Positions 4,690 through 25,056 of a stretch of DNA of 35,114 nucleotides are shown piece after piece (position 1 is the first letter of the stretch; each line of letters opens with the position of its first letter). The position numbers and the translations under genes are program-made. This DNA comes from Candidatus Omnitrophota bacterium (GTDB lineage: Bacteria; Omnitrophota; Gorgyraeia; 2-01-FULL-45-10): the NCBI GenBank assembly GCA_028716065.1, contig JAQUQN010000004.1:1-35114 (forward strand). Direction: 5' to 3'. The notes beneath the pieces are model-generated. The model ran no database searches and was not told the DNA's origin. It worked only from the letters and a program-made list of their open reading frames with translations.

Positions 4690-5574
4690 GTGAAAAGAAG
4701 AACATTCTTCATTATGGCAGCGGCGCTACTTTGTGTTTTCTGCGCCGTGGCTGCAGTGGCAGTCTCATCTCTGGAGTATCAGCATGAAAGGACGAAAGAG
4801 CTGGTAGGCCTGGTCGATGACGCCGCTGGACTTGTAAAGGATAAAGGCGAGGCCGCGTTCCCTGAATTCAGGATCTCCGGCAGCAAATGGCTGACCGGCG
4901 ATACCTATATTTTCGTACTCGACCCGGAAGGCAACATGCTGGTCCATCCCGACGAGGCGCTTGAAGGAAAGAACGAAATGAACTTAAAAGACGCGAACGG
5001 AAAACCCATCGTCAGCATGCTCATAGAGACAGCTTCCGGCAAAGACGGCGAAGGATGGGTGCATTATCTATGGCCGAAGCCGCGCCAGATCGAGCCTTCA
5101 TGGAAGAGCGCTTTCGCGAAGGCCGTCACCGCTCCTTCCGGCAAGATATACATAGTGGGAAGCGGCTGTTACGACCTGAAGATGGAAAAGAAATTCATCA
5201 GCGATGTTGTCGATGAGGCGTCGAAACTGATCGAGAAGAAAGGCGCGAAGGCGTTCGCGGACATACGCGATAAGGCCGGAGCATTCACCTTCCTGGATAC
5301 TTATGTCTTTGTCGATACGCCTGACGGCGTGGAAGTGGTGAACGCCGCCTTTCCGTCAATAGAGGGCAAGAACATGATGAATTTCAGGGATGTTGGAGGG
5401 AAGTATGTCGTGATGGATTATATCAATGCCGCCCTTACCAAGGGCTCCGCATGGGTGGATTATCTCTGGCCGAAACCGGGCGAGACGAACCCATCGATAA
5501 AATATACCTACGTCAGAAAAGTAAATCACGGTAATGAGGTATTCATAGTCGGGTCCGGAGCGTACCTGGATTGA
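4690..5574 (+). CDS. exported protein with two tandem single-Cache (sCache_2-like) domains and no output domain
   Basis: Internal repeat TYIFVLD...EGKN..N.KDANGK...GWVHYLWPKP...IVGSG versus TYVFVD...EGKN..N.RDVGGK...WVDYLWPKP...IVGSG. Signal peptide present, no further transmembrane segment. Confidence 0.85.
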   Translation: MKRRTFFIMAAALLCVFCAVAAVAVSSLEYQHERTKELVGLVDDAAGLVKDKGEAAFPEFRISGSKWLTGDTYIFVLDPEGNMLVHPDEALEGKNEMNLKDANGKPIVSMLIETASGKDGEGWVHYLWPKPRQIEPSWKSAFAKAVTAPSGKIYIVGSGCYDLKMEKKFISDVVDEASKLIEKKGAKAFADIRDKAGAFTFLDTYVFVDTPDGVEVVNAAFPSIEGKNMMNFRDVGGKYVVMDYINAALTKGSAWVDYLWPKPGETNPSIKYTYVRKVNHGNEVFIVGSGAYLD

Positions 5575-9465: not shown

Positions 9466-9556
9466 TATATTCTAGATAAAGGCAAATCCGCCGTAAGGCG
9501 GAGACGCAACATTCCAGATCTAGCATAAGATAGATGGCTGAATTGCCTAGAATATG
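9466..9556 (+). ncRNA. c-di-GMP-I (GEMM-I) riboswitch aptamer
   Basis: P1 ATATTCTAG/CTAGAATAT (9467-9475 with 9547-9555), then AAAGGCAAA, P2 TCCGCC-GTAA-GGCGGA with a GNRA loop, GACGCAA, P3 ATTC-CAG-ATCTA/TAGAT-CTG-GAAT, and TGCC. The equivalents of Vc2 G20, A47 and C92 are retained. Confidence 0.9.
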
Positions 9557-9578
9557 ACTTTTTAGGTGGTTCAGCCAT
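9534..9578 (+). promoter_or_regulatory. riboswitch expression platform: alternative 17-bp hairpin
   Basis: ATGGCTGAATTGCCTAG (9534-9550) pairs end to end with TTAGGTGGTTCAGCCAT (9562-9578), using 4 G-U pairs. It is mutually exclusive with aptamer P1/P3. Confidence 0.75.
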
Positions 9579-12500: not shown

Positions 12501-15500
12501 CAAGGCCGAGAGCGCTGAGCGTATTCAGAGAATTTTTGGCGCTAGAACCGGCCAGGATCGAAAGGATATTGGGGGGTGAAATAACGCCGTTGGCCCTTGA
12601 GATCCACCCAAGCCCGCGATGCAACTTCAGGTGCGCCCACTGTTTCAACGCGACGGCGTTGCAAAGGACCGGTGAAGTAAAAATAAAATCTTTTGCGGCT
12701 GCGGTGAGTCCCGAAGAGAAAGAGAGGGCGCTCGGGCTTATAAGCCAATATATCGCCAGCGGCGTCGACAAAATATATCTGAGTGGCGGTGGAGAGCCGT
12801 TCATGGAAGACCTGCATTCTTATATCGACCATATAAGGAAAACCAGCCCCGACATATATGTTTCCATAAATACGAATGGCGAGCTTCTTACAGAGAGAGA
12901 TATCGCGTTATGCGTCGCGAAGGTCAACAGGCTCTTTTTCTCCATGGATGCCGCGACTTCGCGCACGTTGGGGCGTCTGAAAGGCATAGAAGACAGCGAG
13001 AGTGAGGCGCGGTTCTTCAGGATCGTGAGCAATATGCGCCGGGCCGTGGCGACGAGGGATCAGCAAAGGATTGAAGGGAAGACTTCTCTGAAGATTGGCA
13101 TGGGTTTTGTCGTGGGCGAGATCAACTGTGTGGAAACGGAACAGTTCTTAAAGCTCGCGAAGGATACTGGAGTCGATTTTGTCAATTTCACCGCCCGGTT
13201 AGGTAAGGGCGAGTATGATTCAAAGATCTTGGATACGATCGAAAATATCTACCGCAAGGTAAGGGCGGGCGAGTTCGGCGGCATAGCCGTATTTTTTGAC
13301 GATTCATTCTCGCAATATCTGATGCAGAAAGAATTACGCGAGTCGAATGACGTAACCGGCAGAGAAGCGATGCTAGCAAAAGGTATCTGTTCGGTGGCCT
13401 CCGGCCTTTTGACGCCTGCTTATGCCGCTGGCGCAGGCTTTGTGTTTAGCTGCATCACTAAAGCCCAACCGGCAAATTCGAGCGACCGCTACAAGCTGTT
13501 CAATACGCGGCAGGTTGCTTTACGAAGCGTCAAGGAACTTATGGAGGATAAAAAAGCCGATTTGAGAGCATTAGACCCGGCCGAATGCGAGTATTGCAGG
13601 AAAGCGGATAAGTATATTAATGAGATAATAACAGCTATTAGAGAGGATGCAAAAGATGGTTTGAAAGTGTCTGAACTTCCGATAATTTTCTACGAGGACT
13701 CTTATCTGCGAACGATGGGCATAGGAAAAGGGGGCAGAGTCGATTTAGCCGGCTCGCAAGGGCCCGCCTTGTATCATTTGCCAGGAACGAAAACGTCGAG
13801 TTCAGGTACCGGCCCTGCGCTCTTTGTTGATCCGGACGGCACGGTGCGCGAGCTCAGTCAAGATGAACATAAGGAACTTAATCCAAAGCTTGCTGAAATA
13901 GTCGGTGACTTCGACAATCCCAATAAAGGTGTTGAGAAATTATCTCTGGGAAAGACAGTAGAGCTCTGCGGTCAAACGCATATAGGCCCGGATAAGAATA
14001 GAGGTCCTCCTGTATCGGTATACGTCATCGATGACGAAAAGCTCCCTGAAAAGTTCCAAAACGGCCTCATAACTCATGCCGGCACATTCAAAGGCAAGGC
14101 ATATAACCTCTTCATCCCGCGTTCAGTATACAACGTACTTCTTATATTAACACCAGCAGAACTACAGATCTGGCGCAACCACGAAGTCGGCCATCTCCTC
14201 GATCGCACTGCCAATATCACGCCTACAGAAGAAGAAAAAGAAGTAGCGAAGAAGATATATGAAGCTGCTAGGAAAGCCCCCGCGCCGGCAACGGCCGCGC
14301 CGCAGAAGAGGATAAGTCCGCTGAATCTTGAGAAAATGCCGGCCGGAGAGCTTTTATCCGCTTTGGGTCTAAAGGATCCTCGCAGCATAGAGGGAGCCGA
14401 TATTATCGGTGAAACAGAGGAATATGGTTATACAAGGCAAAGGATTAGCGTAAGAGAACAACTAGACCTTATTCAGCCGCCACGGGGCATATCGATTTTA
14501 CAGCGGGAGCTGGCCAACCCCGATGTCCTAAGGATTAAAGAATTCGACCTTATCTATAACAAAGATGGCCATTTGATAGCAGTCTTTCCTGTCCTGGCTC
14601 CCGGCATGAAACCGTCTGCCGATGATTTAAAATATTTTGATTTCAGCTATTATTATTTCGAAATTCCCAGCGTTAAGGATTCGGATGCGCGGGCTAAATG
14701 GACAGGATTCGCCCGTTCAAGAGAGGCGGATGCATCGTTGATAGAGGATTATAAAACGAGGCATGGTCTTGACGGAATAGAGATGGTCGGAAAGCATCAA
14801 TCGCCGTATATTTATATCGGCGTCAAAGGTGATATGGAGAATGGATGGGATCCTACCGAGATAATAATCGATGACCCTGACAATATCTTCCTGCCGGAAC
14901 CCGAGGATGGCATGGAGCAGATAATAATACCAGTTTTCCCAACGGTCTATTCGCCGGCGCATTGGATGCACAAGGGCGGTGATAAGAGGTATTATGATAA
15001 ATTTTATGAGGGTTCTCAACTGGCAAAGGGCCAGGATATACTGATAATCGGACCGGGTACGGGATGTGACACATGGCTCGCGTGGCTTAAGACGCGGAAT
15101 AAGATGTTCGCAGTAGGATATAACCCGCTGGAAATAGCCAACCTGCGCGCAACCGCTGGAATAGCCGGCTTCGAAGTAGAAGCGGTGGTCGGTGATAATA
15201 TAATCGATGAAGAAGGAAGGCCCAGGTTCGGAGAGAGGAAATTCGACCGTGTCTCCTGGAACATGCCCGCTTATAATCAGATCTATGATGTCGAAAAGCC
15301 CGGTCAGGTTATAAGATCACTTAGCGAGGCATGGGACGGGGATAAGGGGGGCGTTATCCTAAGGCGTTTCGCGAAAGGCCTTCCCGAAGTATTGAAACGG
15401 GGTAGTGGAGCGTTGTCACGGATCTGGAATCAATCTACCTATAACCCGGATATCGACATGATCATGGAAACCGGCGGAGCGAGAAATACTACCGACAGGC

Positions 15501-16798
15501 CTCTTGAGGTTGAATGGAAGAATTCCGCCTATATTATAAAATTGAAAGGCAATATTCAGGAGAAGATTATATCTGCACAGGGTACAGTTTCCGGAGATAT
15601 TAATGCTATAAGAAAAATGTTGGGGATCGAAGGCGAAGAAGAGAAGATAGTGGAGGAAAGAGCGTATAGTAACGGTATATATTATCGGGATCTTATTTCT
15701 TTTACTGAAAATTCAATAATAACGACGACTCGTATCGAACCGGCCGGCATGTCAGGAATGACGACAGACGGGGAAGGGATAAGGTGTTTCTATGAACATG
15801 AGATCGAATGGATACCCGGCAAAACAAAAATAGTTTACCGCAGGACCAAGGTAACCAAAAAAGAGGAAGTGAGCGCGAAAGAGACAGTTCGTGAAGAATT
15901 TGTAACATGCGTGTACAAGGGGCCTGAAGCGAGGGTGAAGATAGGCCTGAAAGACGGCAAACCTTTCCTCGTCATGAATGATAACGCGTTAGAATATTTC
16001 AGGCAGAAGGGTTTCGATATCAGGCGTCGTGAGGATAAGCCTTATCTTGCCATGGGGTGCTGGGGCGCGGTCCCTGAAGATAGACAGATAGCATATGTAG
16101 ACAAAAACGAAACGCTGTTCAAAGAGATGCTCGGCGAAGGGAAAGAACCGGTTCTATTGAGGGTTCCGGTGCAGGGTCTTGAGGCGATGGCCGTCGAAAA
16201 TGCCAGAGACTTCCTGGAAGCGTTCCAGAAAGCGCCCAACGCATATGTGGAATTATTTTCCACAACCGGTAGCGGTGAGGTAAACGCTGCTGATTATCAG
16301 AAAAAATACGGCTTTGAGAAAAAGTCCTTGCCCGAAGGTTTCATGAGGACAAGAAAGAATACAATAACCCTATTTGCCGCGTCAAAAGACGAGAATATTG
16401 ATAAACCGAGCATTGATTCAAGGCTTGGGTCCATTGGCATGAAACAGGAAGATACGCTTCTTTCCCCGATAATCTTGGGGTGCGATGAGGCCGGCCTCGT
16501 TAGGGCGACCATTTTCGGGTTAAAGATGCTCGAAATATCAAAAACTAGGCAAAATAAAACCAGAGAGAAGCTTTTAGCCGAGGTGTTGATGGCCTTGCTC
16601 GACTATAAAAACGCCTGCGATCCCGGCACGCCTTTTGAATTCAGTCATAAAGAGGTAGAAGATATATTGGGCCTTATCGAAGGCAATATTAACAGGGTCG
16701 TTGCCGCGTTAAAGAAGTTGCTGCAGTTCCTGCCCGCAAAACCGATAGACGGCGCAGCCCTGATAAGGCACGCGATAAAGGTCATGACAGCCGCCTAA
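9566..16798 (+). CDS. giant (2410 aa) exported/membrane mosaic protein: signal peptide, CPBP-like TM segment, radical SAM, HExxH domain, class I SAM methyltransferase (likely start ATG 9587)
   Basis: Signal KKTLAAVLAGVFLFTNTFSWA; APVIEE/F..H/H...D TM motifs; CNFRCAHC (12620-12643) with LSGGGEP and TNG; HEVGH (14180-14194); ILIIGPGTG and FDRVSWNMP. Confidence 0.9.
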   Translation: MVQPYIFMQIIYKSSIFNWKFIKKTLAAVLAGVFLFTNTFSWAQEEKLFLTGMGNTSSSGPANTSKLAPKLFLANAEKRAELQAALICDLIEKNANYGKKIDEVNLRDLLLWKGAKDRAFDNCTFQILPGEIRINIPQSNLSVRYYDPQVVGNALPPYSDVRDLKTRPIGPSPFDPARLQRQIIYRVRALPEPRSEETSKSPSRIFSMFSDMKENPGSDYKNMLGVLLEKAAHLDRPFVLEIRDEEGNLKKISIYRKNLEGDYDREDIKTKDTKYFDLLATEGAVEVAEVRLSKDNLIIGVTKLSYETDFNRVNIEMRDIRITKVLDELKKRLPMYAEFIDDQYELGYLGCKEMVYKYDGINCRYRILLPHFIDEAFRKVRQKRGYADNTRMVFLKAGAEPLAEIARVMARIDKGRFPESAICSVWGTMGNYKAVKEGLAAHDPTQAAYFLKYLHDHGVLGPNINNILFVDTDSRIGSRYGMVSRTGPPIGTELLIYRTLLNRDAVNEANKLFGRDGYEFSCWNEKNGVRSAEMFYMYIDPDTVKLPEFALAAEGISGDEQKEYDTRMNVSSFNHGIDLKITRNRISMLWAKVDDVSKTESVDEEFILKDDGTAGLRSRKPYRQPNMGVRLEIQNVLEYAGFVMGTLDFMEAQGFDVSEEAERYFAELGRKFEEISGKNRDNISLSKMQEPSVLTASAFEDTTKPGSLHFLGKILGIRYTSYFHAPVIEELFKIGGPLTLSAIVERLHPGWPVLNTLVFTTFLAVFGVTYIILHTLNERAPPEEATGIKDKLKFYYNELKSIRSNIKALTREQKLNIFRGPFLIAVSGIIMSMIFITDPSMTLMSSMLAHLVIDVGIEHFKNNDKTPPEPGTAAYQKNLERLRSNLIKDPGSVSTRDAMRSILYEAGIGVREQVSDNLISNLIYVTRELLINPIQSAALLKRNIKSSYGVEMDLQDVRDIYILLRRLSVIQDLLTYESARPRALSVFREFLALEPARIERILGGEITPLALEIHPSPRCNFRCAHCFNATALQRTGEVKIKSFAAAVSPEEKERALGLISQYIASGVDKIYLSGGGEPFMEDLHSYIDHIRKTSPDIYVSINTNGELLTERDIALCVAKVNRLFFSMDAATSRTLGRLKGIEDSESEARFFRIVSNMRRAVATRDQQRIEGKTSLKIGMGFVVGEINCVETEQFLKLAKDTGVDFVNFTARLGKGEYDSKILDTIENIYRKVRAGEFGGIAVFFDDSFSQYLMQKELRESNDVTGREAMLAKGICSVASGLLTPAYAAGAGFVFSCITKAQPANSSDRYKLFNTRQVALRSVKELMEDKKADLRALDPAECEYCRKADKYINEIITAIREDAKDGLKVSELPIIFYEDSYLRTMGIGKGGRVDLAGSQGPALYHLPGTKTSSSGTGPALFVDPDGTVRELSQDEHKELNPKLAEIVGDFDNPNKGVEKLSLGKTVELCGQTHIGPDKNRGPPVSVYVIDDEKLPEKFQNGLITHAGTFKGKAYNLFIPRSVYNVLLILTPAELQIWRNHEVGHLLDRTANITPTEEEKEVAKKIYEAARKAPAPATAAPQKRISPLNLEKMPAGELLSALGLKDPRSIEGADIIGETEEYGYTRQRISVREQLDLIQPPRGISILQRELANPDVLRIKEFDLIYNKDGHLIAVFPVLAPGMKPSADDLKYFDFSYYYFEIPSVKDSDARAKWTGFARSREADASLIEDYKTRHGLDGIEMVGKHQSPYIYIGVKGDMENGWDPTEIIIDDPDNIFLPEPEDGMEQIIIPVFPTVYSPAHWMHKGGDKRYYDKFYEGSQLAKGQDILIIGPGTGCDTWLAWLKTRNKMFAVGYNPLEIANLRATAGIAGFEVEAVVGDNIIDEEGRPRFGERKFDRVSWNMPAYNQIYDVEKPGQVIRSLSEAWDGDKGGVILRRFAKGLPEVLKRGSGALSRIWNQSTYNPDIDMIMETGGARNTTDRPLEVEWKNSAYIIKLKGNIQEKIISAQGTVSGDINAIRKMLGIEGEEEKIVEERAYSNGIYYRDLISFTENSIITTTRIEPAGMSGMTTDGEGIRCFYEHEIEWIPGKTKIVYRRTKVTKKEEVSAKETVREEFVTCVYKGPEARVKIGLKDGKPFLVMNDNALEYFRQKGFDIRRREDKPYLAMGCWGAVPEDRQIAYVDKNETLFKEMLGEGKEPVLLRVPVQGLEAMAVENARDFLEAFQKAPNAYVELFSTTGSGEVNAADYQKKYGFEKKSLPEGFMRTRKNTITLFAASKDENIDKPSIDSRLGSIGMKQEDTLLSPIILGCDEAGLVRATIFGLKMLEISKTRQNKTREKLLAEVLMALLDYKNACDPGTPFEFSHKEVEDILGLIEGNINRVVAALKKLLQFLPAKPIDGAALIRHAIKVMTAA

Positions 16799-16817
16799 TA
16801 GTGAGGCATAATTTTGC

Positions 16818-16845
16818 TTGAATTCGACTAACTTTGTGGTATACT
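16818..16845 (+). promoter_or_regulatory. putative promoter (extended -10 TGgTATACT)
   Basis: TTGAAT-16 nt-TATACT upstream of ATG 16883. Confidence 0.45.
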
Positions 16846-16882
16846 CTTGTCTAAACGAATCCGAAGGGGGTGAGTCAGAATC

Positions 16883-17239
16883 ATGAAGAAAATCGTAATA
16901 GTAATATTAGCGTTGGCATTTGTAGCGGGTCTCTCTTACGCGGCGGAGAAGCAGCCTAAGGCCACCGAGCCGGTAGGGGCTGTCGTGGAGACGACGGGTG
17001 TATTCGTAGGTAAGATCGTAGGTGCGGCCGAGAGGGCCACCACCGGCAGCGATAAGATCACCGTTCAGAGCGATACGGGTGAGACGAGGGTATTTCCTTT
17101 TGACCAGACGGTAAAGGTCCTCGATACCTCGTTTCATGCCCTTACTTTGAATCAACTGAATCCTGGCGAAAAGGTGACGGTCGAATATTCAAAGACAGAC
17201 AAGGCGCAGAAGGCCAAGACGATAAAGGTAGCGAAGTAA
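16883..17239 (+). CDS. small secreted beta-rich protein (OB-fold/DUF5666-like, tentative)
   Basis: Classic signal peptide; FVGKIV...ITVQ...VLD...LNPGEKVTVEY pattern. Confidence 0.75.
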   Translation: MKKIVIVILALAFVAGLSYAAEKQPKATEPVGAVVETTGVFVGKIVGAAERATTGSDKITVQSDTGETRVFPFDQTVKVLDTSFHALTLNQLNPGEKVTVEYSKTDKAQKAKTIKVAK

Positions 17240-17260
17240 GCGTTCAAGATAATCATATAT

Positions 17261-17296
17261 AGCGGGGGCGGTTCATCTAACCGTCCCCGCTTTTTT
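17261..17296 (+). terminator. intrinsic terminator
   Basis: 13-bp stem AGCGGGGGCGGTT / AACCGTCCCCGCT, loop CATCT, followed by a T run. Confidence 0.85.
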
Positions 17297-17340
17297 AATT
17301 GGCTTCGGAAGGTTCTCATCTCAGGGGAAATTTTAGGGTC

Positions 17341-17370
17341 CCCGCCTTCGCCAAGGCTTCGGCGGGCAAG
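17341..17370. repeat. 30-bp hairpin module CCCGCCTTCGCCAAGGCTTCGGCGGGCAAG inserted into a TTTTAGGGTC^CTGCCACTCCCT site
   Basis: The same flanks without the module occur at 34830-34851. Confidence 0.7.
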
Positions 17371-17392
17371 CTGCCACTCCCTAAAATTTCTA

Positions 17393-17684
17393 CCCGTTCC
17401 CCAAGTAAAATATTTTGTGTCCTCAGGCGATGGCAGCATAAGATTTTTTCGCACTTTTTGTTGTAAGGCGGAACTTTTGTGGTAAGCCGGAGCGACTGTA
17501 TAAAAATGCGATACATTAAGGCGGTTTAGGCTTTATCATCGCATTTTTATCCACAGTCCCGTTACATGCCTAATGTAACGGGACGGCAAGCGGAGGCGGC
17601 CACAAAAGTAAACGCCTCACTTGGATAAAGTGCGAAAAAATCTTTAAGCCGCCTTTTGGTGCGGCACACAAAAATGATTTTACG
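17393..17684 (+). repeat. ~290-nt highly structured repeat, copy 1
   Basis: Direct repeat of 24721-25015. Stems: 18 bp (17440-57/17627-44), 10 bp (17473-82/17600-09), 13 bp (17500-12/17538-50), and side hairpin CCGTTACAT/ATGTAACGG. Confidence 0.9.
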
Positions 17685-17698
17685 ACCCGCTTTTTTAA

Positions 17699-17728
17699 TT
17701 GGAGATTTGGCGTAAGACGAGGTATAAT
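17699..17728 (+). promoter_or_regulatory. putative promoter (TTGGAG-18 nt-TATAAT)
   Basis: Perfect -10 at 17723-17728 upstream of SD AAGGAG. The -35 lies mostly in the 17-bp direct repeat. Confidence 0.45.
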
Positions 17729-17745
17729 CCTGGTAAAACAAGGAG

Positions 17746-18933
17746 ATGGATATGAAGAATATGAGATGGAACGTGTTGTCGAGGGCGGTGGCGGTGCCGT
17801 TATGTTTCTCTTTTTTGCTTACCGGCTGCGCGTCCTTTCCGGTCCAGACCGGAGCCAAATACGCCAAGGACCTCTACAGGCGTATCCCTTATAAGGTAGA
17901 GGGTCAGTACAGGGTGATAAATGTCTTTTACGCGACCGACAGGGTAGTAGAGGAGAAGAAAGATTCCTCATTATCCTTTAAGCATAAAATGGCCAAGGGC
18001 ATGACATACGGCGACCTGACCGTCAAGATAGACCCCAGCATAAAGATAGGAAAGATGCTTCCGCGCAGGTTAAAGATGAAGGGCGAGATAGGCATCCAGG
18101 AGATAGCGAGGTTGAATGACGACGTATTCATTAAGCAGTTGACCGACGCCGTCGCCGCCTCTCCGCATAACTCATTGCTCGTGATGGTATTCGGCTACAA
18201 GGACGATTTCGAGGCCACAGCCATAAAGGCGGCGTATTTCTCGTATCTTCTGGACGTCAACACACCGGTTCTCTTGTTCGATTGGCCCGGCGACCAGCCG
18301 TTCGCCATCGCAGGTTATTTCACGGCGCAGTCTTGCGCCAAGGAATCGGGGCCATATTTAGGCGAGCTATTGACGACGATAATACGTAAAGTGAAGCCGG
18401 AAAAGCTATGGGTAAAGGCATCGAGCCTAGGATGCCAGGTGGTCTGCGACGCTTTCGACCACATGTATAAATATGATGACCTTTCGGACGCGGACATGGA
18501 AATAGACCACGTTATCCTTGCCGCGCCGGATGTTGGACAGAATGAATTTGATAACCAGTTCAAGGATGAGCTGGCCGCGCTTTCGAAAAAACTCACGACC
18601 TACGTATCCTCCAATGATACGGCTCTATTGATGAGCGGGATGTTGAACCAGGAGAAGCGGCTTGGCAGGCAAAAGGAGGTCCCCCACGAACAGTTTGACG
18701 AGGCAAAGGACCTGCTCTATCTTAAGTCGCTCCATCCCGACAGGATCACCGTCATAGATGTGACGCCCATCAACGTGGCGTCTTACAAGCACGGTTATTA
18801 TCTGGAGTGCCCGGAATTTTATGACGACTTTTACATGCGTATCTTCGATAAAGACCCGAACGTGAATAGACGTCTATATCTTCTCACGTTCAAGGATAAG
18901 GTAGATTATTGGGTGCTGCAGAACGACAAGTGA
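17746..18933 (+). CDS. DUF900-type alpha/beta hydrolase lipoprotein (likely start 17752)
   Basis: Lipobox LTGC, NVFYATDR, FDWPG, nucleophile elbow ASSLG, ILAAPDV, YVSSND.AL, KHGYY. Confidence 0.85.
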   Translation: MDMKNMRWNVLSRAVAVPLCFSFLLTGCASFPVQTGAKYAKDLYRRIPYKVEGQYRVINVFYATDRVVEEKKDSSLSFKHKMAKGMTYGDLTVKIDPSIKIGKMLPRRLKMKGEIGIQEIARLNDDVFIKQLTDAVAASPHNSLLVMVFGYKDDFEATAIKAAYFSYLLDVNTPVLLFDWPGDQPFAIAGYFTAQSCAKESGPYLGELLTTIIRKVKPEKLWVKASSLGCQVVCDAFDHMYKYDDLSDADMEIDHVILAAPDVGQNEFDNQFKDELAALSKKLTTYVSSNDTALLMSGMLNQEKRLGRQKEVPHEQFDEAKDLLYLKSLHPDRITVIDVTPINVASYKHGYYLECPEFYDDFYMRIFDKDPNVNRRLYLLTFKDKVDYWVLQNDK

Positions 18934-19691
18934 AGCATCTTTTATTAACCTTATTAGCGTTGACATGCGTGGCTGTTGCGCCTGGCGAGACAGAAATAAA
19001 AACGCATCCGGCGCGGTTACCCGTCGGTGAAGTATTGGTTTATAAAGTGACGTGGCTGGGCATACCCGTAGGCACGGCGAAGGCATCCGTAAAGGGAATA
19101 AAGAAGATAAACGGACGCGATGCCTATGAGCTGGAGATCGAGGCCAGGACCAACGAATTTTGTTCCCGCATATACAGGATCGAGGACCGCTACATATCTT
19201 ACATGGATGTTAACGAACTCTACACGCTGCGCCACGAAGTTTACCGCCGTGACGGCCGCTACAGGAAGGACGCCGTCACGGATTTTGACCAGATAAACCA
19301 CAAGGCCTATTTTCAGAACTTCCTCGATAAATCGAAAAAGGTGTTGGATATCCCGCCCGGAGTGCAGGACCCGGTCAGCATGATCTATTACTTCAGGATG
19401 GTCCCGCTCAAGATAGGCGAGATGAAAGAATATAACGTTTATAATAACGAATCCACGTACCAGATTTACGGCGTGGCGGACCGCTTGGGCATGATAAAGG
19501 TGCCGCATCTGGGCATGAGGAAGGTCTTTCATCTGCAGCCGTACGCGAAACTTAAAGGCGAGGAAGTAAAGAGAGGCAGGGCGAGCGCCTATTTCAGCTG
19601 CGATGAGGACAGGATACCTTTAATAGGCATCGTCAAGGGGCCCGTATTTACTCAGGTCGTAGGTTATTTGGAAAAAGGGGATCCTTCTTAA
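18930..19691 (+). CDS. DUF3108 domain exported protein
   Basis: GTG start overlaps the upstream TGA (GTGA). Motifs GEVLVYKVTWLGIPVGTA, QDPVSMIYYFR, DEDRIPL. Confidence 0.8.
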   Translation: MKHLLLTLLALTCVAVAPGETEIKTHPARLPVGEVLVYKVTWLGIPVGTAKASVKGIKKINGRDAYELEIEARTNEFCSRIYRIEDRYISYMDVNELYTLRHEVYRRDGRYRKDAVTDFDQINHKAYFQNFLDKSKKVLDIPPGVQDPVSMIYYFRMVPLKIGEMKEYNVYNNESTYQIYGVADRLGMIKVPHLGMRKVFHLQPYAKLKGEEVKRGRASAYFSCDEDRIPLIGIVKGPVFTQVVGYLEKGDPS

Positions 19692-19726
19692 TTATAAGAA
19701 TATAGGATATCTTATTAGAAGTCAAA

Positions 19727-19756
19727 TAGTAGGGCACCCTTAAGGGTGCCCTACTA
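19727..19756. repeat. 30-bp perfect palindrome, GTAG-type REP-like element (copy B)
   Basis: TAGTAGGGCACCCTT|AAGGGTGCCCTACTA is its own reverse complement. Confidence 0.8.
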
Positions 19757-19796
19757 CTGTGGATAAGCAAATCGTCATTCAGCGTCAGGCCGCGAT

Positions 19797-19824
19797 TTGC
19801 TTTTTTTTATTTATAAGGTATACT
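19797..19824 (+). promoter_or_regulatory. putative promoter for the sugar uptake genes
   Basis: TTGCTT-16 nt-TATACT, then SD GAGGAGG and ATG 19849. Confidence 0.45.
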
Positions 19825-19848
19825 TTAGGTCAAAAGAGGAGGAAAACT

Positions 19849-21300
19849 ATGGGGCCAAAGGCCGAGAACGCGGCGGATAGCCGTATTAAGGTATCCATTT
19901 ATACGATAGCATTTATCGCTGCTTTGGCTGGATTACTCTTTGGGTATGATACCGGTGTGATATCCGGCGCGATACTTTTCATAAAGGACCAGTTCAAGCT
20001 TACCGCAGGCGCTCAGGAAGGCGTGGTCAGTTCCGTCCTCTTGGGAGCGGTCATCGGAGCAGCCTTCAGTGGCGGCATAGCCGACCGGTTCGGGAGGCGC
20101 CGTAGTATAATCGTTACCGCATTGTTATTTGCCGTTGGCGCGATAGGAAGCGCTTTGGCCCCTAATCTTAACATGGACATAGCTTATAGCCAGAGTAACT
20201 TTCATATCACGATACCGGCGGTTGCGGTCATAATACTCTTCCGGCTCATGATAGGCATAGCCATAGGCGTGGCTTCATATGTGGCGCCGTTGTATATCTC
20301 AGAGATCTCACCGGCAGACATAAGAGGCGGGCTCGTTTCCTTAAACCAACTGATGATAACCTGCGGTATTGTCGTGTCTTATTTGGTGGATTACATGCTC
20401 AGCATGGGGCAGCAGGAATGGCGATGGATGTTCGGTTTTGGCGCCATACCGGCCCTCATCCTTATAGTCGGAATGATATCCCTGCCGGATTCTCCGCGTT
20501 GGCTCATGAGTAAAGGGCTTGTCGAGCAGGCCCGCGGCGTCCTTTCACGCACTCATAGGAAAGAGAGCGTGGAAGAGGCGATAAACGAGATCAATAAGAC
20601 ATTGGGCCAGAAGGAATGCAGCTGGGCAGAGGTATTTGAACCCTGCCTCAGGCCGGCGCTCTTTGTGGGAATAATGCTCGCCTTCTTTCAACAGGTTACA
20701 GGTATAAATACGATAATCTATTACGCGCCTACCATATTTGAATTCGCCGGATTTGCATCACATAATGTAGCTATACTTGCCACTATCGGTGTGGGCATGG
20801 TGAACGTCCTCATGACAGTGGTCGCGATATGGCTTTTGGACAAAGTGGGCCGTAAGCCGCTATTATATGTAGGTATGGCCGGGATGGCATTGAGCCTTGG
20901 GATGCTTGGTGTGGCATTTTTCCTGCCGACATTATCCGGCGCGTTAAAATGGATCGCCGTCGGCAGCGTGCTATGTTATATAGCGTCTTTCGCCGTCAGT
21001 TTAGGCCCCATATTCTGGCTCCTGATAGCCGAGATATATCCTTTGAGGGTCCGGGGCAGGGCGATGAGTCTGGCAACAGTGGCCAATTGGGGATTCAATA
21101 TGATAGTGGCCGCCACGTTCCTTACTTTGATGGAAAAGCTCGGAAAACCGGGAGCGTTCTGGTTATACGGCGCGCTCTCCGTAGCCGGTATTATCTTTAC
21201 ATATCTATTCGTGCCGGAGACTAAGGGAAAGACGCTGGAACAGATAGAGGAACATCTGCGCAGCGGTAAAAGTTTAAGGACACTCAAGGCCCAGGCATAA
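19849..21300 (+). CDS. MFS sugar porter (SP family, GalP/XylE/GlcP-like)
   Basis: GLLFGYDTGVISGA, DRFGRR, PLYISEISP..RG.LVSLNQL, PDSPRWL, QQVTGINTIIYYAP, DKVGRKPLL, EIYPL..RG, PETKGKTLE. The SD-supported start at 19849 is preferred over 19759. Confidence 0.95.
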   Translation: MGPKAENAADSRIKVSIYTIAFIAALAGLLFGYDTGVISGAILFIKDQFKLTAGAQEGVVSSVLLGAVIGAAFSGGIADRFGRRRSIIVTALLFAVGAIGSALAPNLNMDIAYSQSNFHITIPAVAVIILFRLMIGIAIGVASYVAPLYISEISPADIRGGLVSLNQLMITCGIVVSYLVDYMLSMGQQEWRWMFGFGAIPALILIVGMISLPDSPRWLMSKGLVEQARGVLSRTHRKESVEEAINEINKTLGQKECSWAEVFEPCLRPALFVGIMLAFFQQVTGINTIIYYAPTIFEFAGFASHNVAILATIGVGMVNVLMTVVAIWLLDKVGRKPLLYVGMAGMALSLGMLGVAFFLPTLSGALKWIAVGSVLCYIASFAVSLGPIFWLLIAEIYPLRVRGRAMSLATVANWGFNMIVAATFLTLMEKLGKPGAFWLYGALSVAGIIFTYLFVPETKGKTLEQIEEHLRSGKSLRTLKAQA

Positions 21301-21309
21301 GAGGTTGCG

Positions 21310-22701
21310 ATGAGGACAGAGAATAGCATAAGGATTTTTGCCATATTTTTATCGTTGCTTCTTTTATGTTGCGCGTTCTTCGCTCCAAACGTCATGGCTG
21401 GACCAGAACTCGCGAAGAGAGAGATAGCAAAAGAAGAAACGGCATCGCCGTGGTGGATTGCGCCTACTTACAACCCTCGCAACAGCATGACGGGGGATTG
21501 GGGCGGATTCAGAGATAAGCTATCGGATGAAGGGATATTAGTAACATCAACCTATGTATGCGACGTCCTGGCCGATCCCGTAGGCGGCATGAACACCGGG
21601 ACACAGTACAATCATTCCTGGGGCGGAGATATAAACTTCGACCTTGAGAAACTTCTGAATCTCGTAGGATTGCAGTTCCATATATCCTCTCTATGGCGTT
21701 ACGGCGGGAACCTCTCCAAAAAGAATATAGGCAATGATTTTACTGTTAGCAGTATATACGGGTCCCAGGTCTTCAAATTCTACGGCCTCTATTTGGACCA
21801 GTCGTTGTTCGACGGTAAGCTTGACATACGCATCGGGCGCCAGGCCACGGGCGATGATTTCGCCGCTTCGCAGGTCTACCAGATATCACTCAATAACGCC
21901 ATAGACGGCAACCCTGTAAGTTTGCCGCAGAATTCCTTCTTTTCCGCCTATCCCACCGCCGTGTGGGGCGCGCGCATGATCATAAAGCCTTTCAAGGATT
22001 TTTATTCGCTCTCCGGTATCTATAACGCCGACGACAGGGTGGGGCGCGACGAGGCGCACGGGCTGGATTTCAGCCTGCGGTTATCGCAGGGTATATTTTA
22101 CGCGCAGGAATTCGGATACACGCCGAATAACGATAAAGATTCCCAGGGCCTCCCCGGCCATTACAAGATAGGCGCGGTCTATGACAGCGGAAACTTTTAT
22201 GATTTCTATCAGGACAGGGACGGTGGCTCATGGGTAGTGTCTGGAAAATCGCCCAGAAAGATCGCGGGGAACTACGGTTTTTATGCCCTTCAGGATCAGA
22301 TGGTCTACAGGGAGGGAGGTCCCGGCACGGATCAGGGCCTGGTAGAATTCGTGGCCATAACGTGGGCGACACCTAACATAAACAAGTGGCCCTTCTTCAT
22401 AGACGGCGGCCTCATTTATAAGGGGCTAATACCGGGCCGCGACAATGACCTGTCTTCATTCGGTTTCGCTTACGGCCACTATAGCCCGAACATCGCCCAT
22501 TCCGAGAGGGATGACCGCGATATCAACGGCATCCAGACCGATAAGCAGATATTCGAAATGATGTTCGATTTCAGCTATCGCGTCCAGGTGACTCCGTGGA
22601 TGTATGTCCAGCCCGATATACAGTATATCGTCAGACCCAAAGGCACGGGCAAGACGCCTAACGCGATGGTTATAGGTTCACGGCTGGGTATAACTTTCTA
22701 A
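21310..22701 (+). CDS. oprB: carbohydrate-selective porin, OprB family
   Basis: Signal peptide, MTGDWGGFRDKL..EG, YK.GAVYDSG, NYGFY...DQMVYRE, VQPDIQYI..P.G, C-terminal ...LGITF. Confidence 0.9.
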   Translation: MRTENSIRIFAIFLSLLLLCCAFFAPNVMAGPELAKREIAKEETASPWWIAPTYNPRNSMTGDWGGFRDKLSDEGILVTSTYVCDVLADPVGGMNTGTQYNHSWGGDINFDLEKLLNLVGLQFHISSLWRYGGNLSKKNIGNDFTVSSIYGSQVFKFYGLYLDQSLFDGKLDIRIGRQATGDDFAASQVYQISLNNAIDGNPVSLPQNSFFSAYPTAVWGARMIIKPFKDFYSLSGIYNADDRVGRDEAHGLDFSLRLSQGIFYAQEFGYTPNNDKDSQGLPGHYKIGAVYDSGNFYDFYQDRDGGSWVVSGKSPRKIAGNYGFYALQDQMVYREGGPGTDQGLVEFVAITWATPNINKWPFFIDGGLIYKGLIPGRDNDLSSFGFAYGHYSPNIAHSERDDRDINGIQTDKQIFEMMFDFSYRVQVTPWMYVQPDIQYIVRPKGTGKTPNAMVIGSRLGITF

Positions 22702-24371
22702 TCTTCAATAGCCGGCTTACTCAAATCCTTATCCATGACAACTCTCTCGTATTCCGTAAGAGCCATCATTAACCCTGCCTTTGCCCAGTTGAGCGGCGTG
22801 ATGGGCGATGGAAGGTAGTATCTCTTGCCGTCTATCACCGCCGTATTGATACTTTCCGGGGTCTGCCACGCCTTTACATTTTTACCATCAGCGGTTATCA
22901 TCTCCCCGGTTATCTGTCCGAGCGCGCGCTTCAGGTGGACCGTCGCGAAATAGATATCCTCTCTCTTCAATTTCGGGTCCTTCGTTATCTCGGCTAAGTG
23001 GAGCCTCGCCAGGACGAGGAGGCTGTCGAAGAACCACTGGGCCTCGGTGTCAGGTATGAGCTTGCTCAGCCGCCATAAAAATGCGTTTGCAGATGATGTG
23101 TCGCCGGTAAGTGAAGGTTTATCCTTTTCTTCTTCGGAGGTGTCTTTGATCCAGTAATTTCCTGACTGGTAACTGTCATTACGATAGCGGAGGATCCCCG
23201 CCGGCCGGACGAGCGTTTCGATTATGAGGAGGGCCTTTCTGGCCTCTTCTTCCGAGAGCCCCTCCAAAGGCGATGGTTGTATCAGGACGACCAATGCGAA
23301 ATCGGCAAGACGGAAATGTATATCTTCCGGGTCGTAATCAGGAGATTCGCCCCCGAGCCGCAACTGATATTTTACCTTTGCGAGGCCCCTGTCCACCAGC
23401 CGGCCCAGCATCGGTTCCGTCCACATGCTATGTATTTCGCTTTTGCCGCCGTCTTTTTTAAGAAATTCATCGAATCTATCGCGGAATAATTCCGCTTCGT
23501 CCGAGGCCTTAGAGCCATACATCACGCTTTTCCAGGCCTGTATGGAACGCGTGGCGAGAGCTATGCTGGAGGTATTCCTGCGCTGTATCTCCTCCCATGC
23601 GCCGGCGTCCTCATACTCTTCGAAACCGATACGGTAGAGAAAGAGGGGGTAGAGGCTCAATACCTTTAGACGTTTTTCCGAGAGGTCGTTCGGCCCTACC
23701 ATATTTTTTTCTATTGCCTCGGCGAGCGCCGTGAAGAATAGCCCATGCGCGTCTATTTGGCTATGGTTCCAGGTTTCGGGTTTTCCGTCTATCATGACGT
23801 CGCCCAGGTCCGGAGAGTTGGCATCGAAGCGTATGTGCGGCATCGCCATCGGATCCTTGGATAGTTTAGGGTCGGCGATGATATTCTCGAAGCGCGATAT
23901 CTGCGCGTCGGTCGCGTAATAGTCCCACAATGCAAGTAGCATTCTTCTTGCGTCTTCTCTCCGTTCCGGATCCTGGAGTAATGAATAATATATCCAGACG
24001 CTGTCTCTCACCCATATGGCGTCATAGTGGGTCTCGTCGGTTTTACCGCTGACGGCTCGCGTGGCCGCGGAGGCAAAGCCTCTCTTATTCAGCTCTATGC
24101 GCAGATGAGGAGCGAGCGTCCGACGTATCTCGCCGATCAATTGCTTATCGAGCTTTTTGGCGACCCATTCGGCTATCTTTTCATTGAAAGCTACGACGAA
24201 TTCTCCTTCGGGAGTGAGGACTTCCCTGTAAGGAGTAGTGGATGAGACATAATCCTTCACTTTTTGATAGGCGGACTGTTTTTCATTGGTTTCCGTAGCC
24301 AGAGTAGGTGACAAGCAGACTAAAAAAGCGCCAATTAACAATAAAAACGCTCCCATTATCCGTTTTGACAT
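22698..24371 (-). CDS. exported GH15-like (six-hairpin, phosphorylase-kinase-alpha/beta-related) glycoside hydrolase
   Basis: SD AGGAGG, signal peptide, YDAIWVRDS, QIDAHGLF, AGAWEE...NTSSIALA, GILRYRNDSY, PLNWA. Confidence 0.75.
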   Translation of the reverse strand: MSKRIMGAFLLLIGAFLVCLSPTLATETNEKQSAYQKVKDYVSSTTPYREVLTPEGEFVVAFNEKIAEWVAKKLDKQLIGEIRRTLAPHLRIELNKRGFASAATRAVSGKTDETHYDAIWVRDSVWIYYSLLQDPERREDARRMLLALWDYYATDAQISRFENIIADPKLSKDPMAMPHIRFDANSPDLGDVMIDGKPETWNHSQIDAHGLFFTALAEAIEKNMVGPNDLSEKRLKVLSLYPLFLYRIGFEEYEDAGAWEEIQRRNTSSIALATRSIQAWKSVMYGSKASDEAELFRDRFDEFLKKDGGKSEIHSMWTEPMLGRLVDRGLAKVKYQLRLGGESPDYDPEDIHFRLADFALVVLIQPSPLEGLSEEEARKALLIIETLVRPAGILRYRNDSYQSGNYWIKDTSEEEKDKPSLTGDTSSANAFLWRLSKLIPDTEAQWFFDSLLVLARLHLAEITKDPKLKREDIYFATVHLKRALGQITGEMITADGKNVKAWQTPESINTAVIDGKRYYLPSPITPLNWAKAGLMMALTEYERVVMDKDLSKPAIED

Positions 24372-24446
24372 TATCCAACCTCCTTTTATACCGTAAAGTA
24401 TACCCTATCATCTCCCCAAAAGCCAGAATGGGAGAAATTCCTCTAT

Positions 24447-24635
24447 AAGGTTCCCCTCTCGGGTGGGCATTTCGCGGGAACGCGTGATTTTCCCCGGCGT
24501 GGAAAATCACGCTCGGAAAAATCGCTCGCTCTCCGCCTTCGCAATCAATAAGGGATAGGTAAGGTGCTTCGGCGGATCCATGCCCGCTCGCGATTTTTAC
24601 GTCCCGCTCCATGCCGCACCCTCGGGGGACCCCTT
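24447..24635. repeat. ~190-nt nested hairpin module
   Basis: Stems GGGTG/CACCC, GGCAT/ATGCC, GCGGGA/TCCCGC, GCGTGATTTTCC/GGAAAATCACGC (12 bp), AAAAATCGC/GCGATTTTT, TCCGCC/GGCGGA. Confidence 0.7.
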
Positions 24636-24720
24636 TTCAGAAGAAAGGAAATTTCGCTTCGCGGAATTCCCTATGCGTCTTATAGGGGGAATTTTAGGGT
24701 GACACGACCGAGACTTTTGT

Positions 24721-25015
24721 CCCGTTCCCCAAGTAAGATATTTTGTGTCCGGGTAGAGAGCGGTAATACAAGATTTTTTCGCACTTTTTGTTGTAAGGCG
24801 GAACTTTTGTGGTAAGCCGGAGCGACTGTATAAAAATGCGATACATTATGGCGGTTTAGGCAATATCAATCGCATTTTTATCCACAGTCCCGTTACATGC
24901 CTAATGTAACGGGACGGCAAGCGGAGGCGGCCACAAAAGTAAACGCCTCACTTGGATAAAGTGCGAAAAAATCTTTAAGCCGCCTTTTGGCGCGGCGGAC
25001 AAAAATGATTTTACG
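24721..25015 (+). repeat. ~290-nt highly structured repeat, copy 2
   Basis: Near-identical to 17393-17684. Differences are concentrated in one 17-19 nt variable segment, the apical hairpin and the basal stem. Confidence 0.9.
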
Positions 25016-25028
25016 CCCTTATTTCTGC

Positions 25029-25056
25029 TTGTAATTACAGATTTATAGGGTATAAT
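25029..25056 (+). promoter_or_regulatory. putative promoter for the galT-exporter-GH3 operon
   Basis: TTGTAA-16 nt-TATAAT, followed by SD AAGGAG and ATG 25079. Confidence 0.55.

Follow-up and report, generated by a model that had tools for sequence, protein, structure and literature searches.

Both loci described here are members of a dispersed, gene-less and uncatalogued family of structured repeats in Omnitrophota. A sequence-only reading of the analysed stretch of DNA (hereafter, the window; 35,114 nt) had described two copies; they are not a pair but two of the at least 18 core copies in this 1.4-Mb, 75%-complete Omnitrophota MAG. The family has a core of ~156 nt on the plus strand of the window, in which a P2-P3-P4 stem leads to a three-way junction with the hairpins P5 and P6. 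The core is closed by P1 and additional outer layers, variable arms of an inverted repeat that extend it to a rod of ~290 nt in the window. The family is multicopy, its positions change among related genomes, and recent bursts have occurred within genomes.

The two copies in the window

The direct copies A and B span 17372-17700 and 24700-25030, with rods at 17405-17683 and 24733-25014, and share 97-98% identity across the central ~220-250 nt (17440-17690). As the sequence-only reading described, they are look-alikes of ~290 nt in the same orientation, and each is predicted to fold as a long, interrupted rod that carries two side hairpins. The minimum free energies as RNA were -122.7 (A) and -121.4 (B) kcal/mol, with z about -8 relative to shuffled sequences, and DNA folding parameters gave a z of -9 for the rod. 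The fully swapped segment noted between the copies was recovered as two different copy-specific stretches (Table 1).

Table 1 Positions of features in and around copies A and B (window coordinates)
Feature	Position	Strand	Evidence or remark
Copy A, outermost rod layer, 5' arm GTAAAATATTTTGTGTCC	17405-17422	+	
Copy A, copy-specific 17-nt segment TCAGGCGATGGCAGCAT	17423-17439	+	without match elsewhere
Copy A, closing helix P1, 5' arm AAGATTTTTTCGCACTTT	17440-17457	+	partner 17627-17644
Copy A, conserved core P2-P6	17464-17619	+	covariance-model match 179.4 bits; fold; covariation
Copy A, P2	17466-17470/17613-17617	+	
Copy A, P3	17473-17483/17599-17609	+	
Copy A, P4	17486-17488/17595-17597	+	
Copy A, junction strand GGAGCGA	17489-17495	+	
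Copy A, hairpin P5	17496-17556	+	
Copy A, hairpin P6, loop GCCTA	17557-17583	+	
Copy A, junction strand CGGCAAGCGGA	17584-17594	+	
Copy A, P1 3' arm AAAGTGCGAAAAAATCTT	17627-17644	+	
Copy A, small hairpin GCCGCCTTTTGGTGCGGC	17648-17665	+	
Copy A, outermost 3' arm ACACAAAAATGATTTTAC	17666-17683	+	
17-nt direct repeat CCCGCTTTTTTAATTGG, left copy	17286-17302	+	coincides with the 3' half plus T-tract of the 118-aa gene's terminator
17-nt direct repeat, right copy	17686-17702	+	3 nt past rod end; shares 3 nt (17700-17702) with downstream -35 hexamer
Promoter-like site after copy A, TGGAGA-17-TATAAT	17700-17728		
Copy B, outer 5' arm GTAAGATATTTTGTGTCC	24733-24750	+	
Copy B, copy-specific 19-nt segment GGGTAGAGAGCGGTAATAC	24751-24769	+	
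Copy B, P1 5' arm	24770-24787	+	
Copy B, conserved core	24794-24950	+	covariance-model match 171.3 bits; fold
Copy B, junction strand GGAGCGA	24819-24825	+	
Copy B, P5	24826-24887	+	
Copy B, P6	24888-24914	+	
Copy B, junction strand CGGCAAGCGGA	24915-24925	+	
Copy B, P1 3' arm	24958-24975	+	
Copy B, hairpin GCCGCCTTTTGGCGCGGC	24979-24996	+	
Copy B, outer 3' arm GGACAAAAATGATTTTAC	24997-25014	+	
Promoter-like site after copy B, TTGTAA-16-TATAAT	25029-25056		

Copy A is flanked by a 17-nt direct repeat with only these two occurrences genome-wide, the left one overlapping the terminator of a 118-aa gene (17261-17291). Between them lies a 400-bp insertion made up of an upstream hairpin module (~17322-17390) and the rod, and the filled left junction was also present in a second assembly (Logan SRR22315506). 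Both copies had been described as ending upstream of a TATAAT promoter. Promoter-like hexamers do follow both, but these sites are outside the repeat and are not a general feature of it, as sense-direction downstream promoter-like sites were detected at only 22 of 85 copies. Each window element lies between an upstream gene or terminator and the promoter-like site of the next gene, and is likely to leave both genes largely or wholly unaffected.

Conserved fold and covariation of the core

Across 86 sequences, 92.1% of the alignment cells at the core helices were paired, versus 35-42% with slid partners, and double compensatory changes were found in 46 of the 48 base pairs, which none of 500 shuffles matched. 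A set of 16 sequences gave a similar picture (92.4% paired versus 29-42% when slid, with double changes in 24 of 48 pairs). Divergent copies with 57-74% identity still formed 36-48 of the 48 pairs and differed from one another by 10-20 double changes. The junction strands GGAGCGA and CGNCAAGCGGA were nearly invariant across copies, and 12 unpaired consensus columns were conserved at ≥90% over eight families. The P6 stem was hypervariable and its loop constant; the P1 arms vary from copy to copy yet remain complementary.

Covariation in the remaining helices was genuine once relatives had been added, but the apex change that had been taken as compensatory (TAAGGC/GCTTTA versus TATGGC/GCAATA) was not. 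All four combinations occur among the 15 short-form copies of this genome, the mismatched one being the most frequent in our own alignment count. The pairing was also asymmetric between strands, with G-U/U-G outnumbering A-C/C-A (76 versus 22) and G-A/A-G outnumbering C-U/U-C (246 versus 12). The G-U and tandem G-A pairs indicate that the plus strand of the window is the folded strand.

In a third large-form copy (contig C28), the corresponding left-side segment is largely taken up in pairing with the right-hand side of the rod. In one genome (G187), an IS200-like element with its own, differing ends lies inside a P1-bounded rod.

Distribution and mobility

Covariance-model matches were obtained in all 40 genomes and all 21 genera of the family to which this genome belongs, at 1-25 copies per genome, and a class-wide sample contained the element in 39 of 301 genomes from eight families. 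A scan of the whole window against Rfam 15 returned a single match, a c-di-GMP-I riboswitch at 9471-9550, and nothing at the element; a permissive scan of 17250-17800 reached at best E = 0.36 (19 bits), and four divergent copies from other families likewise had no Rfam match at the element. The suggestion of a new mobile structured element is thus sustained by the missing Rfam match, the strong covariation and a dispersed pattern of gain and loss.

Within a single genus, one site is filled in genome G033, empty in G409 and occupied by another repeat in G163, and the closest named relative has no element at the galT-side site. Nearest-neighbour copies were 97-100% identical inside G033, G548 and this genome, where half of the copies are close to contig ends. 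The neighbours are unrelated housekeeping genes (trpBA, rodA/PBP2, nusB, xseA and lpxL), beside which the element is found in both orientations, and no gene family recurred within 3 kb of the 86 copies or in a 23-copy set. The unrelated neighbours, the shifting positions and the high identity within genomes together indicate that the element is mobile or copied. In its behaviour it resembles small mobile DNA, and neither a guide RNA nor a gene switch. Some positions recur between families, for example the 3' flank of rodA and trpB|trpA, which could mean retention and not re-insertion.

No exact pair of empty and filled sites with alignable flanks was found. The 17-nt repeat of copy A was the only flanking direct repeat of ≥10 nt not plausibly due to chance among the 18 copies scanned, which showed no consistent target-site duplication. 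The scan covered repeats of ≥10 nt only; a 5-bp duplication was judged by eye on the alignment, and none was evident.

Placement relative to genes was biased. The intergenic spacer had a median of 42.5 nt on the 3' side of the element and 225 nt on the 5' side, the latter being the longer in 56 of 74 cases (p = 1e-5). The nearest gene end was a convergent stop in 43 of 85 copies (median distance 19 nt), and stop codons follow immediately after ...GCCGAAAAAT. New copies enter short intergenic spacers, in most cases with the 3' end next to the adjoining gene and often directly abutting the stop codon of a convergent gene; there the terminal (G)TA(A/G) supplies or restores the stop.

Possible mode of movement

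We consider it reasonably probable that the family belongs with structured repeats of the bcr1/REPIN kind. On this reading the element is non-autonomous, and a folded single strand of it would be copied or moved in trans by an enzyme that is encoded elsewhere and recognises the invariant junction and loops. Since reverse transcriptase is missing from most carrier genomes, DNA is a likelier form of this strand than RNA.

Genes of the IS110, IS200-605 and reverse transcriptase kinds had been named as possible associates. TnpB (PF07282) was detected in none of the 40 carrier genomes, IS110 (PF01548) in two and reverse transcriptase (RVT_1) in nine, and the genomes with 13-25 copies had none of the three. 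Only Y1_Tnp (RAYT-type) genes were common (34/40), but they were unlinked to the element and not specific to its carriers. Y1/RAYT genes occurred in 247 of the 301 class genomes, with or without the element, and their number showed no relation to its copy number (Spearman rho -0.01). The ten Y1_Tnp loci with the highest scores had no element in the surrounding 1.5 kb, and at least two of the three RAYT-like genes of this genome are flanked by repeats of their own. Y1 HUH (RAYT-like) enzymes are the sole tested class available in most genomes, with nothing tying them to the element.

The 12 conserved unpaired columns exceed what is usual for simple selfish hairpins and also fit a functional RNA. 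Such an RNA would be useful to the host as a trans-acting RNA or RNP scaffold, as a self-processing RNA, or as a cis module at gene 3' ends for transcript termination, insulation or stabilisation, with selection on the RNA fold maintaining each locus. The element is present in all 40 genomes of the family, even in those with one or two copies; the invariant junction and loop nucleotides in eight families, the retention of pairs by divergent copies and the asymmetry pointing to a single folded strand also agree with it, as do the identical operon positions occupied across families and the copies tight against stop codons. We nevertheless regard this as unlikely. Within co-directional operons, copies lie in both orientations (39 antisense, 24 sense), and the commonest layout puts the less structured complement on the operon transcript. 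Promoter-like sites upstream in the sense direction were not enriched (8/81), copy number ranges from 1 to 25, positions are not kept inside one genus, and bursts of 97-100% identical copies typify mobile DNA.

A further, speculative and rather doubtful possibility is a new class of structured nucleic-acid elements that have the three-way junction as their active centre. The element may process itself as a catalytic RNA or DNA, or may be the specific substrate of an Omnitrophota structure-recognising machinery that copies the folded plus strand and pastes it beside stop codons. The junction combines purine-rich GGAGCGA/CAAGCGGA strands, a tandem G-A at the base of P6, a constant GCNUA(A)U loop and a conserved P5 apex. 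A second, 'AGCGA-rich' repeat family has the same outer arms, a hint of a superfamily with one mechanism.

The element could also be a classical MITE, in which case a DDE transposase would recognise terminal inverted repeats of the form (G)TA-AATTTTTCGGC ... GCCGAAAAATT-TA(C), move the element as double-stranded DNA by cut and paste, and target TA, including the TA of stop codons. Terminal inverted repeats are present in the form of the P1 arms (for example, GTAAAATTTTTCGGC / GCCGAAAAATTTTAC and AAGATTTTTTCGCACTTT / AAAGTGCGAAAAAATCTT). These arms are common to families with other interiors, in this genome at C9:4168-4376, C28:4204-4426 and C14:4128-4354, and TA stands at either side of many copies, with stop codons overlapping the end. 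However, TA is self-complementary and a G...C pair flanks it, so the TA ends are equally well read as a stem extension. Near-identical cores in G033 carry differing P1 arms and linkers, contrary to what a unit defined by its inverted repeats predicts, and the internal covariation and strand asymmetry are unexpected under a double-stranded mechanism. This assembly contains no multicopy transposase-like ORF, and neither its ORFs nor searches for IS630-type transposase (DDE_3, 1/40 genomes) and IS110 (2/40) revealed an autonomous relative with matching ends. With neither such an element nor a consistent target duplication, classical MITE status is unproven, and we consider it quite improbable.

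Least probable is that the element serves an RNA-guided mobile system (TnpB/IscB omega-RNA or IS110 bridge RNA) as guide or partner RNA, or is a retro-mobile RNA (SINE- or retron-like), with the 17-19-nt segment or the P6 stem as the specificity determinant. The conserved scaffold with a copy-specific segment, the hypervariable P6 stem beneath its constant loop and the one copy with a long flanking duplication recall such systems, but the 17-19-nt segments had no above-chance, target-like match elsewhere in the assembly, the corresponding C28 segment is largely paired, and P6 is fully base-paired and hence not free for guiding. The partner genes are missing from nearly all carriers, none lies within 3 kb of the 86 copies, and no HEARO, IS605-orfB or other Rfam family matched; the omega-RNA test comprised PF07282, neighbouring genes and Rfam. 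On these grounds the earlier idea of a scaffold with a variable guide is largely refuted.

Comparison with known repeats and implications

The closest analogy, and an analogy only, is bcr1 (group A repeats) of the Bacillus cereus group, a small, gene-less, multicopy intergenic repeat of ~155 bp. Its predicted cruciform-like fold has a basal stem and two stem-loops with compensatory changes, its distribution is not conserved among relatives, and no mobilising enzyme is known for it (review PMC3184786). The Omnitrophota element resembles it in intergenic multiplicity, fold and shifting location but comes from a different phylum and has no sequence relation to it. Moreover, bcr1 is flanked by 5-bp direct repeats and its structures reportedly lose stability repeatedly, whereas the Omnitrophota family lacks a consistent duplication, keeps its fold and junction bases over eight families, and is placed flush with stops and with an orientation bias.

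REP, REPIN and BIME repeats are likewise non-autonomous, palindromic, intergenic and long-persisting, often lie just past gene ends, form mosaics and presumably function as single-stranded DNA in folded form. REPs are hairpins of 20-40 nt tagged GTAG or CGTC (PMC3733652), whereas the present unit is a 156-nt three-way junction, with GTAG only beside some outer arms in G033. In REP systems the RAYT gene is flanked by its own REPs; the Omnitrophota RAYT loci carry other repeats, and RAYT is not element-specific.

The ERIC, Correia (CREE) and RUP MITEs measure 100-170 bp, carry terminal inverted repeats with TA at each terminus, insert near genes and can join transcripts (PMC3184786). The Omnitrophota element shares the inverted repeats, TA termini, size and insertion near genes, but those MITEs give little sign of a conserved, branched core whose unpaired bases are invariant, and they have a clear TA duplication and known or suspected related transposases, which contrasts with the single Omnitrophota genome with an IS630-type gene. 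Omega-RNAs (TnpB/IscB, HEARO) and IS110 bridge RNAs are also multi-helix, 150-300 nt long, possibly multicopy and equipped with a variable segment, but they adjoin a nuclease or recombinase gene, unlike the Omnitrophota element among its housekeeping neighbours.

Omnitrophota are uncultured bacteria with small genomes. Persistence over eight families in such genomes implies that the repeat must pay its way or spread very effectively. In practical terms, copies of the family fragment assemblies at contig ends and remodel the 3' ends of genes, and annotators could take them for riboswitches, small RNAs or guide RNAs; the covariance model allows them to be masked or tracked. The deep covariation, few invariant bases, strand asymmetry and orientation-specific, stop-flush habit of this family make it a well-defined test case for the movement of gene-less folded repeats.

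Identification of a structured repeat family in the host genome

The branched, RNA-like element that the sequence-only reading described in the window is genuine and belongs to a repeat family that is structured, deeply conserved, uncatalogued and probably non-autonomous. Repeat finding and alignment placed the two as direct copies, A and B, with 97-98% identity across the central ~220-250 nt and divergence in a segment of 17-19 nt and beyond ~17405 and ~17683 (copy A). Each is predicted to fold as a long, interrupted rod bearing two side hairpins, and the folding energies of the RNA were -122.7 and -121.4 kcal/mol for copies A and B, with z of ~-8 against dinucleotide shuffles for both. Similarly strong folds were obtained from the reverse strand and with DNA parameters, as expected of a near-palindrome.

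Both window copies are genuine, but they are not a pair, as the core (~156 nt, with the junction strands GGAGCGA and CAAGCGGA) is present in at least 18 copies in the host assembly (1.40 Mb, 174 contigs, 75% complete). Roughly half of these lie within ~700 nt of a contig end, which is typical of assembly-breaking repeats. Counted on the alignment, all four combinations of the apex pair occur among the host copies, so a compensatory reading of the change is not supported, and the variable segment that had been proposed as a guide had no match elsewhere in the genome. The host is an Omnitrophota MAG, whose GalT-like protein has its best named relative in 'Candidatus Omnitrophota bacterium STD1_81' (63% identity).

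Most host copies have the outer arms (closing helix P1) GTAAAATTTTTCGGC / GCCGAAAAATTTTAC, and the two in the window, like one on contig C28, have AAGATTTTTTCGCACTTT / AAAGTGCGAAAAAATCTT plus an additional outer layer. The hairpin P6 occurs in two forms with a common GCCTA loop, one a perfect Watson-Crick stem and the other GCGAGCGAGGAT/ATCCGAGCGAGC with tandem G-A pairs; the hairpin P5 is either short or ~45 nt longer. A second family, in the host and in another Omnitrophota genome (G033), has the same P1 arms as the element and an interior that is different yet AGCGA-rich. In all, the shared outer arms, AAATTTTTCGSC / GSCGAAAAATTT, were seen on repeats with different interiors at five loci, and GAGCGA motifs are abundant in the shared-arm family at four of the loci tabulated (C9, C28, L093 and L089).

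Upstream of copy A is the terminator of a 118-aa gene, and downstream is the promoter-like site of a DUF900 hydrolase gene. The copy is flanked by a 17-nt direct repeat, composed of the terminator 3' arm and its T-tract and found at these two genome sites only, which encloses a 400-bp insertion made up of an upstream hairpin module and the rod. This repeat greatly exceeds typical transposase duplications in length, and no comparable flanking direct repeat was found at any other copy in this genome. Small repeat modules (for example, GGGAAATTTTAGGGT... and AATTTTAGGGTG) were observed 5' of the rods and at 11 places in the genome, and the 5' spacers of element copies are mosaics of such modules.

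Coordinates of the element copies and of other features in the window, the host and related genomes
Feature	Record	Position	Remark
Direct copy A	window	~17372-17700	
Direct copy B	window	~24700-25030	
Rod, copy A	window	17405-17683	
Rod, copy B	window	24733-25014	
Core, copy A	window	17464-17619	
Core, copy B	window	24794-24950	
Variable segment, copy A	window	17423-17439	
Variable segment, copy B	window	24751-24769	
Terminator of 118-aa gene	window	17261-17291	5' of copy A
17-nt direct repeat, left	window	17286-17302	
17-nt direct repeat, right	window	17686-17702	
Promoter-like site	window	17700-17728	between copy A and DUF900 hydrolase gene
Promoter-like site	window	25029-25056	between copy B and GalT-like gene
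Small modules, 5' of rod A	window	~17322-17390	
Small modules, 5' of rod B	window	24680-24700	
c-di-GMP-I riboswitch (RF01051)	window	9471-9550 (+)	59.1 bits; immediately before giant ORF
Giant ORF	window	9566-16798	2410 aa
Shared-arm repeat	host C9	4168-4376	
Shared-arm repeat	host C28	4204-4426	
Shared-arm repeat	host C14	4128-4354	
Shared-arm repeat	G033 L093	7350-7568	
Shared-arm repeat	G033 L089	8966-9182	
RAYT-like (Y1_Tnp) gene	host C6	~16000-16950	
RAYT-like (Y1_Tnp) gene	host C154	1565-2307	
RAYT-like (Y1_Tnp) gene	host C165	144-815	
IS200-like element within rod	L103 (G187:C30)	1266-2175	
IS200-like element within rod	L102 (G421:C32)		
Alternative repeat	G163 L114 (C32)	~5320-5500	
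c-di-GMP-I-GGC riboswitch	L138 (G521:C1)	2731-2836 (-)	68.6 bits; ~165 nt from an element copy

Distribution and conservation of the fold

BLASTN detected copies in a sister family and elsewhere in the host's own family, in genera other than the host's, at 70-83% identity. Every one of the family's 40 genomes and 21 genera was matched by the covariance model R1 (156 positions, 48 pairs), at 1-25 copies per genome, numbers that are lower bounds because the searches scored the best 10-75 candidates per genome. Matches were also found in 39 of the 301 genomes sampled over the class, in eight families, all full-length and scoring 60-180 bits. A known RNA family was rejected, given that neither the window copies nor four divergent copies matched any Rfam family, and full-text literature searches gave no report of a repeat like this in Omnitrophota. 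Two copies on one G421 contig of 4.9 kb (L060, C15) are 97-98% identical to copies in G033, a genome of a different genus, which could reflect binning contamination or recent transfer.

In a MAFFT alignment of 16 sequences, 92.4% of the cells were paired, compared with 29-42% when the partners were slid, and double changes occurred in 24 of the 48 pairs; 0-2 of 500 shuffles reached the observed values, depending on the measure. Covariation held when 86 copies from eight families were fitted to the model (92.1% of cells paired, 35-42% with partners slid, double changes in 46/48 pairs, 0/500 shuffles), an alignment that favours the model's structure, though the margin is nonetheless very large. 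The sequences around the three-way junction (GCC-GGAGCGA-CU, ACAG and CGNCAAGCGGA-GGC) are nearly invariant across families, the P5 apex motif is kept, and GCCUA is the commonest P6 loop (38/86 copies). The mismatches are one-sided, with 76 G-U/U-G versus 22 A-C/C-A and 246 G-A/A-G versus 12 C-U/U-C, and selection on the fold thus acts on the window's + strand.

Placement relative to genes

Using ORFs called by a simple longest-ORF script, we profiled the layouts of 74 copies with ORFs on both sides. Co-directional gene pairs predominated, with the element antisense in 39 and sense in 24, a split that is not significant alone (two-sided binomial p ~0.08); 7 were divergent and 4 convergent. The neighbouring ORF is at a median of 42.5 nt on the 3' side (≤40 nt in 36/74) and 225 nt on the 5' side, the 5' spacer being the longer in 56/74 (p = 1.1e-5). 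In 43 of 85 copies, the closest gene terminus is a stop codon belonging to a gene that runs toward the element 3' end, and it lies a median of 19 nt away from the core; sense-orientation stops facing the element are few and far away (10 copies, median 257 nt). Upstream of the core, an own promoter was not enriched (8/81).

In ~12 copies a reverse-complement stop codon (TTA, CTA or TCA) immediately follows ...GCCGAAAAAT, and the gene there reads TAA or TAG and then ATTTTTCGGC, so the element end supplies or restores the stop. ORFs ending exactly at, or a few codons into, the 3' arm were seen at several loci (for example, L162, L063, L091 and L090), where the neighbouring gene takes its stop codon from the repeat.

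Because the copies adjoin unrelated genes in both orientations, and because the closest named relative carries none at the galT site, the element was rejected as a cis-regulatory leader for the DUF900 and galT-like operons. Five of 30 family genomes, and one from the sister family, have a copy in the rodA 3' flank, just past the stop and mostly antisense; these copies are mutually 57-74% identical. The pattern resembles a hot spot more than it does clear orthology; a single conserved 'master' locus was rejected, as so few genomes are filled and the copies resemble one another no more than random copies do.

Mobility and candidate partner enzymes

The element behaves as mobile or copied DNA. 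Its neighbours are unrelated housekeeping genes (trpB/trpA, rodA/PBP2, nusB, xseA, lpxL and ABC transporters), and the closest named relative lacks the element at the copy B site. Three genomes of a single genus differ at one intergenic site, which carries the element in G033, is empty (~33 nt) in G409 and in G163 is occupied by another repeat, built from CTAACCAGGTTAG palindromes. In G033, G548 and the host, the nearest neighbours of copies are same-genome copies of 97-100% identity, which indicates recent bursts or homogenisation. The G033 cores are 98-99% identical, yet their P1 arms (ATTTTTCGGC or GCGAAAATATC) and linkers differ, thus the homogeneous unit is the core, not the whole rod.

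A search of the host genome and of 177 kb from G033 for empty P1 hairpins that could be landing pads found none. A second assembly (a Logan contig) had the same filled junction and ends within the repeat, the flanking 395-aa protein had no record elsewhere, and the intergenic DNA of same-genus genomes was too diverged to align, so neither assembly nor genus comparison gave an exact insertion site.

To seek partner genes we compared all ORFs within 3 kb of 23, then 86 copies, all against all; only synteny and no recurring gene family was detected. Y1 HUH (RAYT-like) genes are the most widespread candidates (34/40 family genomes), but the evidence runs against them as the mobiliser, since they are common yet neither specific, linked nor correlated: they occur in 247/301 class genomes, irrespective of element presence, gene number is uncorrelated with element copy number (rho -0.01), no element was near any of ten loci checked, and at least two of the host's three genes carry their own flanking repeats. 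GTAG-type REP hairpins (ACACCGCGTAGGTGT) flank the C6 gene, and a 34-nt inverted repeat flanks the C154 gene. Reverse transcriptase (9/40), IS110 (2/40), IS630-type DDE (1/40) and the TnpB zinc-ribbon (0/40) failed on presence, which leaves guide-RNA, retro-element and IS630-MITE readings without a partner; the host genome has no multicopy transposase-like ORF. A single-stranded DNA route via an HUH-type or other enzyme may account for the copying.

At two loci a canonical IS200-like element (TnpA ~145 aa, 130 bits) was inserted within the rod, which is bounded by GTAAAATTTTTCGCC ... GCGAAAAATTTTAC; its hairpin ends are its own, unlike those of the rod.

By analogy, its closest functional counterparts are bcr1 (Bacillus cereus group) and REPINs (PMC3184786), from which the Omnitrophota family differs in its large invariant junction, its strand asymmetry, and its stop-codon-flush, orientation-biased placement.
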